A DNA stretch of 64,000 bases from Escherichia coli (GTDB taxonomy: Bacteria > Pseudomonadota > Gammaproteobacteria > Enterobacterales > Enterobacteriaceae): the NCBI RefSeq assembly GCF_003018255.1, contig NZ_CP027440.1; one strand, 5' to 3'. The position numbers were made by a program. Positions 6,001 through 9,000 of the stretch are shown here, one piece after another; positions within the stretch are counted from its first letter, which is position 1; every line of letters begins with the position of its first letter.

Positions 6001-9000
6001 TATCCCATTTTAGAATCAGGCTGCGTTTCTGCAGCCTCTCTCATCACCCAAATGTCTAATCAGGCTATTATTGATTATCCATGTTTCCTGTATGTTTGCG
6101 GCATGCTCCCAATAACTTTCCCGAAGATAAACACCCGGTTCATCTCGTCTTTCTCGATTGGGTCCCACGGTGAGTAGCTCTTGTTATCAGAGATAACCAG
6201 CAGTTTATCCTTCATCATTTGCAGGCGCTTAACATGGGCTGTGTCGTCATACAGAAACGCATAGATACCATCACCGTCGAAAGATTTAACAGTGATATCA
6301 ACGAACAGAAGATCACCTGGTTCGATCGTTCCTGACATGCTGTCACCGCGTACGTTAATGATGCGGATATTTTCTGCCTTCCTGCCATCGAACATGTGAC
6401 GAGCATCGTCAAACGAGTACTCAACCGAGCGTAGAACTTCTACAAACTCACGGTTGATGACTCCCGGCCCGGCACTCACTTCTATATCAAGAACGTCAAT
6501 CTTGAAGTATTTGGGATGGTTGGCAGCAGGCTTCCCTGATTGTTGACCGTCATTTCTCATCGGGCCTATGCCTGATGAGAGCCACTCTGTTCGAACACCC
6601 AATGCATTAGCTATTTCAACAATTTTTGTTGAGCCGCGTGCGTTGCCGCTTGTCAGTCTCCAGATTGTGGGTTGAGCTACGCCAGACGCCTTTGCAAGAG
6701 CGCCTTGAGACATTCCAGATTGTTCCATCGCTAGGTTTAAGCGATCAGCAAGAGTTTCTTTTTTCATAAGTTTTAATTTATACGCTTGCGTATTGATGGT
6801 CAAAACACGTTTTGCTATTGATTGGGTTAATACGCATTGCTATTATCCATTCATTGTAATACCAATAGGAATTGATAATGACAAATCAAACCATTCAACT
6901 CGCAATCAGTATTACAGGTAGCCAAAAACGACTGGCAGATCTATGCGGTGTAGCCCAGCCCACTGTTTGGCGTTGGCTACACGGTGGGGGAATTGATGCC
7001 CGCTATGTAATGAAAATTGTCTCAGCCACTGGTGGAAAGATTAAACCAGCAGATATTCGTCCCGACCTTGCACCATTGTTTAACGCGAGTAATTCTGCCG
7101 CCTAAACTGCGGCGTTAACTGATAAGGCAATGATTATGCAACCACTTACATACCAACAGACTAGCGGATTTAGCCCGACTGCGGTGATAAATCGTTCTCA
7201 AATAAAACAGGTGCCAGGCCACGAAAAAATCCGTGATGCCGTTCGCGCCTGGTCGGCTGCAGATAATCAGGATGTTGTTGCCGCACTCATTGTGAATGAG
7301 TATCGGGAGCAGGGCGGCGGCACCATCGATTTCCCTGATGATGTCAGCCGTGCACGCCAGAAGCTGTTCCGCTTCCTCGATAACAAATTCGATTCTGAAA
7401 AATACCGAAATAACGTGCGTGAACTGACCCCGGCAATTCTGGCGGTACTACCGCTGGAATATCGCGGCCACCTGGTTGAGCAGGATAGCTTCATGGCTCG
7501 GCTGGCTGAAATGGAAAAGGAACTCTGTGAGGCAAAGCAGGCGGTCATTCTCAACGCACCACGCCACCAGAAACTGAAGGAGATGAGTGAAGGCATTGTG
7601 TCGATGTTTCGAGTGGACCCGGATCTGGCTGGTCCATTGATGGCGATGGTCACCACCATGCTGGGGGCAATATGACAGGTTCAAAAATGGCGAAAGTCGG
7701 TCTGCGGGAACAGAACCGACTTTCAGGTGCAAATCGTAACACACTCATTGCGGGAGGAATTATGGCAAACACTGCTGAGATATTCAATTTTCCAGTGCCG
7801 GATGCGGCACAAAAGGAGCCGCGCGTGGCAGATCTCGATGATGGTTATACGCGCATTGCAAATGAGTTGCTGGAAGCTGTGATGCTGGCCGGATTAACAC
7901 AGCACCAGCTTCTGGTCTTCCTGGCTGTCATGCGCAAAACATATGGCTTTAATAAAAAACTGGATTGGGTGAGCAACGAGCAACTGTCCGGATTGACCGG
8001 GATATTACCGCACAAGTGTTCTGCTGCAAAAAGTGTTCTGGTAAAGCGTGGGATTTTGATTCAGAGCGGGCGGAATATCGGTATTAATAATGTGGTCAGT
8101 GAATGGTCAACATTACCCGAATCAGGTAAGAAAAATAAAGTTTACCTGAAAGAGGTAAATTTACCTGAATCAGGTAAGAAAAGTTTACCCAAATCAGGTA
8201 AAGGCGTTTACCCGAATCAGGTAAACACAAAAGACAAACTAACAAAAGACAATATAAAACCTTTTTCGTCCGAGAATTCTGGCGAATCCTCTGACCAACC
8301 AGAAAACGATCTTCCTGTGGTGAAACCAGATGCTGCAATTCAGAGCGGCAGCAAGTGGGGGACAGCAGAAGACCTGACCGCCGCAGAGTGGATGTTTGAC
8401 ATGGTGAAGACCATCGCACCATCAGCCAGAAAACCGAATTTTGCAGGGTGGGCTAACGATATCCGCCTGATGCGTGAACGTGACGGACGTAACCACCGCG
8501 ACATGTGCGTGCTTTTCCGCTGGGCATGCCAGGACAACTTCTGGTCCGGTAACGTGCTAAGTCCGGCCAAACTCCGCGACAAGTGGACCCAACTCGAAAT
8601 CAACCGTAACAAGCAACAGGCAGGCATGATAGCCAGCAAACCAAAACTCGACCTGACAAACACTGACTGGATTTACGGGGTGGATTTATGAAAAACATCG
8701 CCGCACAGATGGTTAACTTTGACCGTGAGCAGATGCGCCGGATCGCCAACAACATGCCGGAACAGTACGACGAAAAGCCGCAGGTACAACAGGTAGCGCA
8801 GATCATCAATGGTGTGTTCAGCCAGTTACTGGCAACTTTCCCGGCGAGCCTGGCTAACCGTGACCAGAATGAACTGAACGAAATCCGCCGCCAGTGGGTG
8901 CTGGCTTTCCGGGAAAACGGGATCACCACAATGGAACAGGTTAACGCTGGAATGCGCGTAGCCCGTCGGCAGAATCGACCATTCCTGCCATCACCCGGGC

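Follow-up and report, generated by a model that had tools for sequence, protein, structure and literature searches.

A probable phi80-type CII of the YdaT family and its candidate operators in an Escherichia coli prophage

Genes and features at the locus

The window, which is the whole 64,000-nucleotide stretch of Escherichia coli DNA that we analyzed, carries a 181-aa open reading frame between cro and O (7130-7675, + strand) that we confirm to be a real gene. Its left neighbor is a Cro/YdaS-like HTH gene, beyond which a CI-type repressor with an S24 peptidase domain is encoded divergently. To the right lie a lambda-type O gene (PF04492) and then a P gene (PF06992). The initial annotation had placed the gene in the cII position, and the order cI, cro (ydaS), this gene, O, P bears this out. 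This is also the order expected of a YdaT-family gene, which follows a YdaS/Cro-type gene with a divergent CI-type repressor and lies upstream of the replication genes. Coordinates of all features are collected in Table 1.

Translation of cII almost certainly starts at the second of two in-frame ATG codons, at 7136. We favor this start because the Shine-Dalgarno sequence TAAGG (7123-7127) lies 8 nt 5' of it and just 2 nt 5' of ATG 7130, because homologues are 179-180 aa long with the N-terminus MQxLxYQQ, and because the cII gene of phage 4A7 is annotated as 540 bp. The product, at 179 aa, is about twice the size of the 97-aa lambda CII, as had been noted before. The repressor gene is annotated as 693 bp in 4A7.

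The start of O, like that of cII, needs correction in annotation. The match to the O profile begins at residue 31 of ORF 7672, the O genes of phi80, mEp237 and HK225 begin at an ATG aligned with 7762, and a GGAGG sequence stands just 5' of this ATG. The apparent ATGA overlap of cII and O is an artefact of the over-long O reading frame. With the start corrected to 7762, there are therefore 86 bp between cII and O, and these hold an oop-like element. This element (z=-3.7) consists of a leftward promoter-like sequence, TTGAAT-17-CATAAT (7787..7759), and a perfect 10-bp hairpin (7692-7701 / 7715-7724) followed by GCCAUUUUUGAA. At the matching place, phi80 is annotated with "M3 RNA, homolog of lambda oop", and lambda itself has an oop-type antisense element just downstream of cII. 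A search of Rfam returned nothing credible around the gene. The hairpin in the cro-cII intergenic region (7097-7113) was considered as a nutR boxB and rejected, as no nutL counterpart occurs in the window and the hairpin has unremarkable stability (z=0.11).

Table 1. Genes, candidate regulatory sites and structural elements in the window
Feature	Position	Strand	Details
cI-type repressor	6075..6767	-	HTH + S24 peptidase; ORF 6075-6803; probable start ATG 6767
YdaT-type box at cro start	6872..6889	.	TTGATA-ATGACA-AATCAA, 11/12; over cro start codon, ATG 6878 in spacer
cro analogue, YdaS-like HTH	6878..7105	+	Pfam PF15943 E=1e-14; PHROG 35; ORF spans 6872-7105, probable start ATG 6878
cII, phi80-type, YdaT family (probable)	7136..7675	+	179 aa; alternative in-frame ATG 7130 gives 181 aa
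Candidate pRE -10	7158..7163	-	TAGTCT; 20 nt downstream of box
Candidate CII operator at pRE	7184..7201	-	TTGAGA-acgatt-TATCAC; 8/12 to TTGATT-N6-AATCAA; cII codons 17-22
oop-like antisense element	7676..7787	-	between cII and O
Replication gene O	7762..8691	+	start corrected (O profile, aligned ATGs, GGAGG)
YdaT-type box, nin region	13725..13742	.	TTGATT-TTGGGA-AATCAA, perfect 12/12; TTGATT = -35 of predicted rightward promoter
Predicted nin-promoter -10	13748..13753	+	CATAAT; 17 bp after TTGATT
Conserved hairpin	13758..13784	+	TCACCGGAG-cctgaacaa-CTCCGGTGA; just past predicted nin-promoter start

Family assignment and predicted fold of the cII product

The statement that the protein belongs to no clear family proved to be wrong. 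Its residues 69-156 match Pfam PF06254 (YdaT) with 101.9 bits against a cutoff of 21 (E=2.6e-29), and it matches PHROG 163, "CII-like transcriptional activator" (E=7e-66). Phi80 CII is 66% identical to it over 180 aa, which is the full length (E=6e-92), and the annotated cII products of the Bievrevirus phages 4A7, Perceval, 1W and 3W are 98% identical to it. The YdaT protein of Rac shares 35% identity over the DNA-binding domain, that of CP-933P belongs to the same Pfam family with about 28% identity, and PF06254 is present in all 120 of the 120 homologues listed. An NCBIfam scan of the gene gave no meaningful match. Lambda CII has a different fold family and no detectable sequence similarity: BLASTP produced no alignment with it at E<=100, and the Pfam scan produced no match to Phage_CII at E<=1.

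The closest known system is the CII of phi80 (JX871397 PHI80_49; also the CII proteins of mEp237, HK225 and HK639; PHROG 163). Phi80 CII shares its N-terminal extension and its conserved hydrophobic C-terminal tail with the window CII, and phi80 cII likewise lies between a cro analogue and a replication gene (O/gp15), with an oop-like RNA downstream. The immunity (cI/cro) specificity of phi80 differs from that of the window. Genes for phi80-type CII are very common, occurring in hundreds of viral contigs, and are already annotated as cII in GenBank; YdaT-type CII is a second kind of CII that has already been described.

The AF2 model of the protein has a pLDDT of 85 overall and of more than 90 over the HTH domain. 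When this model was searched with Foldseek, the only confident matches were 8BT1, which is CP-933P YdaT, and its close homologue 3C4R (probability 1.0, TM 0.69-0.71), the same two entries that were found in the PDB by sequence. The predicted fold is thus consistent with membership of the YdaT family. Residues 1-25 are predicted to be disordered, and residues 29-113 to form a five-helix HTH domain (helices 29-42, 45-58, 70-82, 88-104 and 107-113) with an 11-residue loop at 59-69. The window CII and CP-933P YdaT have in common the five-helix POU-like HTH, the long alpha2-alpha3 loop and a conserved arginine in the recognition helix. In the window CII this residue is Arg79, in helix 70-82; it aligns to Arg57 of Rac YdaT, corresponds to Arg60 of CP-933P YdaT, is kept in at least 90% of 31 diverse family members, and is nearly invariant in both subfamilies. 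The H56A/R57A double substitution in Rac YdaT eliminates DNA binding.

Beyond the HTH domain, three further helices are predicted at 119-138, 143-160 and 162-178, and a conserved KE..EA motif is common to the window CII and the short YdaTs. The C-terminal helix of YdaT forms an antiparallel four-helix bundle, and the resulting tetramer is needed for DNA binding. The C-terminal helices of the window CII presumably also assemble into an oligomer; that this is a tetramer we only assume from YdaT, because the C-terminal half with its three predicted helices differs from the single long one of YdaT. Where CP-933P YdaT has one long tetramerization helix, the helices of the window CII are broken at a conserved Ala-Pro. 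CP-933P YdaT, at 141 aa, also lacks the 28-aa disordered N-terminal extension of the window CII and its last ~20 residues (GPLMAMVTTMLGAI). Rac YdaT, at 140 aa, is likewise shorter and has a different C-terminus. In the window, the coding region of the N-terminal extension holds the predicted pRE box and -10.

The suggestion in the initial annotation of a possible lysis-lysogeny regulator of another kind holds up well, since its homologues, the YdaT proteins of CP-933P and Rac, are characterized CII analogues. Through these two proteins there is clear homology to a characterized CII-type activator, which is what that annotation had named as the finding that would count against its own view of the gene. 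We conclude that the gene very probably encodes the phi80-type CII of a lambdoid prophage, a YdaT-family transcription factor that replaces lambda CII in the lysis-lysogeny circuit. This high confidence covers the identity of the protein and its general role; for the promoter geometry and for repression of the nin promoter, both described below, our confidence is in each case slightly short of even.

The nomenclature of the databases offers another reading, in which YdaS and YdaT make up a toxin-antitoxin pair and this gene encodes the toxin: the Pfam names are "Bacterial toxin ydaT" (YdaT_toxin) and "Bacterial toxin YdaS", and many homologues are labeled "toxin YdaT domain-containing protein". 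This reading is largely refuted, and we regard it as extremely improbable for the window gene. The name stems from a prediction that experiments failed to support, as CP-933P YdaT has no toxicity and acts as a transcription factor (PMC8630535), and a role for YdaT as a transcription factor and not as a toxin has been argued from gene context (PMC5917428). The predicted DNA-binding HTH fold and the canonical cI-cro-cII-O-P array argue against a toxin as well. The label is misleading and is best kept out of prophage annotation. The initial annotation had also raised the possibility of an accessory gene, that is, a moron-like gene located by chance between cro and O with no role in the phage decision. 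We found nothing specific in its favor, and it is highly improbable: the position is conserved in phi80, mEp237, HK225, HK639, CobraSix, Klebsiella phages, Rac and CP-933P, no other cII candidate lies between cro and O, and the regulatory regions of the phage itself carry operator-like sites cognate to the protein.

The operator-like site within cII and the predicted pRE

The tetramer of CP-933P YdaT recognizes TTGATT-N6-AATCAA (PMC9986795), and the protein activates PRE933P, a leftward promoter of the pRE type (PMC8630535). Rac YdaT activates leftward, repressor-sense transcription, and its box is required for the 29-fold activation; the ydaS promoter and 5' region are also bound by this protein (PMC11879457). 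By analogy with these homologues, from which we take DNA specificity, tetramer formation and pRE activation, the N-terminal POU-like HTH domain of the window CII, with Arg79 in its recognition helix, would recognize inverted repeats of the TTGATT-N6-AATCAA type. What our own analysis shows is the family, the predicted fold, the gene context, and the occurrence of the boxes with their conservation and linkage.

A candidate site of this type lies within the first codons of cII, consistent with the cognate inverted repeat expected at the cro/cII junction or gene start of a YdaT-family locus. The direct repeat TTGC-N6-TTGC that serves as the lambda CII operator was not found at the start of cII, where the element is instead an inverted repeat of the TTGATT/ATCA type. 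At 8/12, the pRE box is a weak match to the consensus in the clade of the window. A YdaT-type box is nevertheless found at codons 17-22 in all six clades, reaching 10/12 in mEp237 and the Klebsiella clade. Because the window protein and the long-subfamily alignment brought up almost only near-identical copies, divergent members served as queries. The arrangement of box, 20 nt and TAnnnT is present in 303/303 loci from the six clades. Phi80 has it in the same cII codons as the window, with TTGAGC in place of TTGAGA as the distal half-site of the box. The Rac prophage of E. coli K-12 shows the same geometry, with its footprinted box at the gene start and the -10-like TATGAT at 20 nt on the cI-sense strand, and in a CP-933P-type locus TATCCT follows at 21 nt, within 1 bp of this spacing. 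The highest synonymous-site conservation in the gene is found at codons 6-11, and the third positions of codons 9-11 are identical across all clades despite differing amino acids. Over the pRE box itself, synonymous-site conservation is modest and no outlier (0.56 versus a gene mean of 0.44), and we do not claim it as evidence.

These features suggest a scheme in which CII would be produced early from pR, after cro, and would bind the box in its own gene. Centered at -41.5, the bound protein would activate a leftward promoter lacking a -35 element, with its predicted start near 7151. The pRE transcript would run antisense through cro into cI, the predicted beneficiary, so that repression would be established. 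This role of the window CII in lysogenization by its own phage is extrapolated from the homologues. Lambda CII occupies the same gene position and has the same predicted job, being made from pR and driving cI. It activates a leftward, -35-deficient promoter from a site that overlaps the first cII codons. The lambda operator is a direct repeat, TTGC-N6-TTGC, that straddles the -35 of pRE, whereas the YdaT family binds an inverted repeat. Unlike lambda, the near-identical phage 4A7 gave no pI-type CII site around int/xis, whether this region was screened for the consensus or for the box-20 nt-TAnnnT geometry.

The predicted -41.5 arrangement is somewhat doubtful and is unconfirmed by the published promoter mapping for CP-933P and Rac. 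The CP-933P operator is said to contain an alternative transcription start (PMC9986795), and in Rac the activated promoter (PracR4) has been assigned ~190 bp from the box (PMC11879457).

YdaT-type boxes at the cro start and in the nin region

Like the window cII, CP-933P ydaT follows a YdaS-type cro, and the CP-933P operator consensus is found in the window as matches of 12/12 and 11/12. A scan of the window for TTGA-N8-WATCA gave 7 matches compared to 1.7 expected. The box-like matches in the late region (48783-48800, 50431-50448, 43616 and 45362) are probably due to chance. Together with the site within cII, the 11/12 and 12/12 boxes provide a concrete map of the probable targets of CII.

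The 11/12 box lies at about +20 to +37 from the predicted pR and may be a negative-feedback or looping site; in 4A7 it is weakened (TTAATA, 10/12). The perfect box lies in a predicted rightward promoter (13725-13753) upstream of ylcH-ybcN-ninE-ybcO-rusA-Q. The -35 and -10 of this promoter also appear, marked as putative, in the record of phage 82 (X92588), and they are conserved in HK639, KO-TP1 and phi80. The hairpin that follows is a "possible regulator-binding site" in the phage 82 record and IR4 in phi80. Phi80 has the whole module of box, promoter and hairpin upstream of a ninB-like gene, as in the window, with TTGATA-N6-TATCAA as its box compared to TTGATT-N6-AATCAA here.

The location of these two best matches is what favors a reading of the protein as mainly a repressor or roadblock, which would control its own pR operon and turn off the nin promoter, with pRE not needed for lysogeny. 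One match covers the cro start downstream of pR and the other the nin promoter, at its -35 and spacer. Of the three boxes, that at pRE has the poorest match (8/12), and binding over the ydaS promoter has also been described for Rac YdaT (PMC11879457). Against this, both characterized homologues activate a leftward pRE-type promoter (PMC8630535, PMC11879457), the box-20 nt-TAnnnT geometry is kept in every clade with synonymous-site support, the phi80 orthologue is the gene named cII, and the cro-start box is degraded in 4A7. We therefore regard a primarily repressive function as unlikely and retain the assignment as a CII that would activate pRE.

The half-sites of the nin box are kept in 59/78 loci across 18 different spacers. 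The box is strongly linked to YdaT-type cII, which is present in 25 of 30 contigs selected by the motif and in 19/19 complete phage records that have the nin box, against a base rate of about 13%, figures that ignore shared ancestry. The remaining 5 of the 30 contigs with the nin box and promoter (L325, L345, L385, L387 and L420) have a lambda-type cII, and DLP12 of K-12 keeps the box with no cII at all; the box may therefore persist without a YdaT-type CII, or serve another protein.

If CII binds at 13725-13742, it would cover the -35 and spacer of the rightward nin promoter, and the simplest effect would be to shut this promoter and delay Q. We regard this direction of the effect, which is read from the overlap of box and promoter, as plausible but with odds just below even. 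In lambda, the CII-dependent promoter paQ acts on Q via an antisense RNA. The outcome proposed here, a delay of Q, would be alike, and the mechanism would be different, namely direct occlusion of a promoter. We preferred occlusion of the rightward promoter over a leftward paQ-like promoter at the nin box, for which no minus-strand -10 lies at an activating distance.

More generally, we put forward as a tentative proposal, somewhat less likely to be right than wrong, that YdaT-type CII times the late genes by occluding the nin/Q promoter directly during the decision period, with the operator doubling as the -35 of a conserved promoter on the left border of the ylcH-ninB...rusA-Q module, and that prophages cross-regulate one another in this way. 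A description of the nin box as a CII/YdaT target was not found in the literature searched; the phage 82 record flags only the neighboring hairpin. Should this box prove to be a genuine CII site, it would explain how late genes are delayed by a CII of the non-lambda kind and would suggest cross-talk between prophages that share a host, such as Rac and DLP12 in K-12. About half of E. coli genomes have this box in DLP12, so that the YdaT/CII of one prophage, for example Rac YdaT in K-12, might regulate the nin/Q operon of another.

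The window cII gene and its family

The ORF that the initial annotation placed in the cII position is present, and the position itself was borne out by the neighboring genes. Its left-hand neighbor is a 77-codon ORF with a match to the YdaS/Cro HTH family (PF15943, E = 1e-14), and further left, on the opposite strand, lies a divergent CI-type repressor with HTH and S24-peptidase domains. To its right lie a lambda-type O (PF04492), then P (PF06992), and then a Ren-like gene.

The gene had been described as one with no clear family, but its product scores 101.9 bits with Pfam PF06254 ("YdaT_toxin"), for which the curated cutoff is 21, matches PHROG 163 ("CII-like transcriptional activator") over residues 19-181 (E = 7e-66), and is 66% identical over its full length to phi80 CII (E = 6e-92). 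Identity is 98% to the annotated cII proteins of phages 4A7, Perceval, 1W, 3W, and the PhiR series, 66% over the full length to mEp237 CII, 52% to the CII proteins of HK225 and HK639, and 35% across the DNA-binding domain to Rac YdaT of E. coli K-12. PF06254 is present in all 120 relatives listed from a search of 5.8 billion proteins. A PDB sequence search returned only 8BT1 and 3C4R, both YdaT structures, and a Pfam scan and BLASTP revealed no similarity to lambda CII.

CP-933P YdaT is non-toxic and raises transcription from PRE933P, a cryptic promoter that lies between ydaS and ydaT and points leftward, and homology of YdaT to phi80 CII has already been remarked (PMC8630535). In crystals, CP-933P YdaT has a POU-like HTH domain and, after it, a long tetramer-forming helix, and its footprint is TTGATT-N6-AATCAA (PMC9986795). 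Rac YdaT footprints ATGATT-CATGAA-AATCAA over the ydaT start codon, activates leftward, racR-sense transcription 29-fold in a box-requiring manner, and also binds the ydaS promoter region (PMC11879457). An H56A/R57A double substitution in Rac YdaT abolishes DNA binding. Clear homology to these characterized CII-type activators and to phi80 CII indicates that the window gene product is a second, previously described kind of CII. Thus, the initial suggestion of a different type of lysis-lysogeny regulator was right, though the type was already known and annotated.

An AF2 model based on an alignment of 31 sequences has a mean pLDDT of 85 and is confident from residue 26 on, with residues 1-25 below 50. 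In a Foldseek search of the PDB, the model had confident matches to 8BT1 and 3C4R only (probability 1.0, TM 0.69-0.71, 27-28% identity). The recognition-helix Arg79, the counterpart of Arg60 in CP-933P YdaT and Arg57 in Rac YdaT, is kept in at least 90% of the alignment. Phi80-type proteins differ from crystallized YdaT in an N-terminal extension of ~28 residues that is predicted to be disordered, in a C-terminal half of three predicted helices (119-138, 143-160, and 162-178) with a break at a conserved Ala-Pro, and in a hydrophobic C-terminal tail, GPLMAMVTTMLGAI, that is conserved within the phi80-type subfamily and that crystallized YdaT lacks. This tail could be a helix for oligomerization or, like the lambda CII C-terminus, a tag for a protease (FtsH/Lon).

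The most likely cII start is the second ATG, at 7136, which would give a protein of 179 aa. The Shine-Dalgarno sequence TAAGG (7123-7127) lies 8 nt from 7136 and only 2 nt from 7130, homologues are 179-180 aa long with the N-terminus MQxLxYQQ, and the cII gene annotated in 4A7 is 540 bp. An ATGA overlap between cII and O was rejected as an artefact, since the O profile match starts at residue 31 of the ORF from 7672. The aligned ATG is the O start in phi80, mEp237, and HK225, and GGAGG lies 5' of ATG 7762, the true O start. The long O ORF from 7672 given in several phage records is too long, as the oop-like element between cII and O shows. That element has a promoter-like site (TTGAAT-17-CATAAT, 7787..7759) and a perfect 10-bp hairpin (folding z = -3.7) followed by a U-run, GCCAUUUUUGAA. 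The stem carries paired changes when compared with mEp237 and PHB10, and in phi80 an oop homologue (M3 RNA) is annotated at the equivalent place. The cro-cII spacer hairpin is kept in phi80, HK225, and CobraSix and is perhaps tR1-like. Its stability is not unusual, and no second copy was found within the window, so there is no obvious nutL/nutR pair.

Features of the window prophage and cII start regions of the six clades, with predicted pRE elements
Feature	Position	Strand	Sequence or remark
Ser/Thr kinase gene, 348 aa, and 153-aa ORF	4493-5994	minus	stk-like, as in Stx phages; directly left of cI
cro-start box	6872-6889		TTGATA-ATGACA-AATCAA, 11/12; spans cro start codon, ~20-37 nt downstream of predicted pR
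cro-cII spacer hairpin	7097-7113		GCCGC-CTAAACT-GCGGC
cII ORF	7130-7675	plus	181 aa
predicted pRE box and -10-like hexamer, window clade	7201..7184; 7163..7158	cI-sense	TTGAGA-acgatt-TATCAC; TAGTCT
pRE, mEp237 clade		cI-sense	TTGATT-gcgatt-TATCAT; TATTTT
pRE, Klebsiella clade		cI-sense	TTGATT- or CTGATT-tcgctt-TATCAG; TATTTT
pRE, phi80 clade		cI-sense	TTGAGC-gcggtt-TATCAT; TATTGT
pRE, HK225 clade		cI-sense	GCGATT-ctggta-AATCAT; TACCTT
pRE, PHB10 clade		cI-sense	ATGACA-cgggaa-TATCAT; TACTCT
Hydrophobic tail of CII	7619-7672		residues 162-179
oop-like antisense element	7676-7787	minus	within the 86-bp cII-O gap
DLP12-like region	9700-17100		includes emrE (multidrug efflux), ybcL (PEBP), ybcM (AraC), ylcH, ybcN, ybcO, rusA
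ybcK-like serine recombinase	10343-11869
nin box	13725-13742		TTGATT-TTGGGA-AATCAA, 12/12; between ybcM-like AraC gene and ylcH/ybcN
Conserved strong hairpin	13758-13784		just past predicted nin promoter
Phage 82-type Q	15382-15780
nmpC-like porin	15969-17066	opposite

A predicted pRE within cII

The cII start region was aligned for 303 loci, drawn from the window, GenBank phages, and IMG/VR contigs; their 188 unique sequences fall into six clades. Read on the cI-sense strand, all 303 loci carry an 18-bp box of the published type followed by 20 nt and TAnnnT. Synonymous-site conservation peaks at codons 6-11, which hold the hexamer (0.77 versus a gene mean of 0.44; the top six-codon stretch), and codons 9, 10, and 11 have the same third base in every clade despite differing amino acids. 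Conservation over the pRE box itself is unremarkable (0.56), and the window box is a weak operator match (8/12).

We infer from these alignments that pRE has the promoter geometry box-20 nt-TAnnnT. If TAnnnT is the -10, transcription would start near 7151, the -35 position would be occupied by CACCGC, which is no -35 element, and the box would be centered at -41.5, a classic site for activators contacting RNA polymerase. The leftward transcript would run antisense through cro and on into cI, and the disordered N-terminal extension would be the coding stretch that houses the gene's own promoter, as in lambda. Unlike this geometry, the published YdaT-dependent start in CP-933P lies inside the operator (PMC9986795); a CP-933P-type locus has TATCCT 21 nt past the box. 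In Rac, the published YdaT-dependent start, PracR4, is ~190 bp from the box (PMC11879457). A near-consensus -10, TATGAT, lies exactly 20 nt past the footprinted Rac box on the racR-sense strand (compared locus L002, 3152-3195), a spacing as in the window, which suggests a YdaT-dependent promoter beside the box, instead of or besides PracR4.

A conserved candidate operator at the predicted nin promoter

The most noteworthy open reading concerns a conserved candidate operator at the nin promoter rather than the cII gene itself. TTGA-N8-WATCA occurs 7 times in the window versus 1.7 expected (at least 7 in 0/100 shuffles), and two sites, the cro-start box and the nin box, are closer to the published operator than the pRE box is. 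The TTGATT of the nin box is the -35 of a predicted promoter, TTGATT-17-CATAAT (CATAAT at 13748-13753), that precedes ylcH-ybcN-ninE-ybcO-rusA-Q. A 1996 phage 82 record annotates the identical -35 and -10 as putative and places the label "possible regulator-binding site" on the hairpin, not on the box. The box scores 12/12 in HK639 and 4A7, 11/12 in KO-TP1, and 10/12 in mEp237, and reads TTGATA-N6-TATCAA in phi80; the spacers differ among all these phages, and upstream homology ends exactly at the box.

A nin box with at most one mismatch adjoins a -10 in 59 of the 78 contigs that extend downstream of a window-type cII by 7 kb or more, with 18 different spacers and nearly invariant half-sites. 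When a viral collection was searched by motif alone, contigs with an identifiable CII type carried YdaT-type cII in 25/30 cases and lambda-type in 5/30. The segment occurs in 19 complete GenBank phages, every one of them with a YdaT-type cII, against a base rate of 50 YdaT-type to 348 lambda-type records. The association has a nominal P of ~1e-18, uncorrected for shared ancestry. Linkage of the nin box to YdaT-type cII is strong but not exclusive, and it is not absolute because K-12 DLP12 keeps an identical box without any cII. Five contigs (L325, L345, L385, L387, and L420) combine a perfect box-promoter with lambda-type cII; either these arose by recombination and the site is an orphan, or the box serves another factor.

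The simplest reading of these sequences is that CII would occlude the nin promoter and so delay nin/Q expression, the same outcome as that of lambda paQ by a different route. Given the identical box in DLP12 and the presence of the nin segment in 2824 of 5426 E. coli genomes, it is possible that Rac YdaT acts on the DLP12 nin box in K-12.

The cro-start box is a candidate site that could serve negative feedback or looping. We place less weight on it because one half-site is degraded to TTAATA in 4A7. Box-like sequences in the late region, at 48783-48800 (plus) and 50431-50448 (minus), are probably chance matches; one of them, TTGATA-ACGCTT-TATCAG, is close to the Klebsiella-clade pRE box. A search around int/xis of phage 4A7 revealed no pI-type site.

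Wider prophage layout

To the right of ren, the gene layout is like that of the K-12 DLP12 prophage, of which the window effectively represents an intact relative. Identity to Stx2-converting phages is 97% in the left arm (885-6000), whereas Bievrevirus phages are the match for the immunity and replication region, with a mosaic junction between the two.
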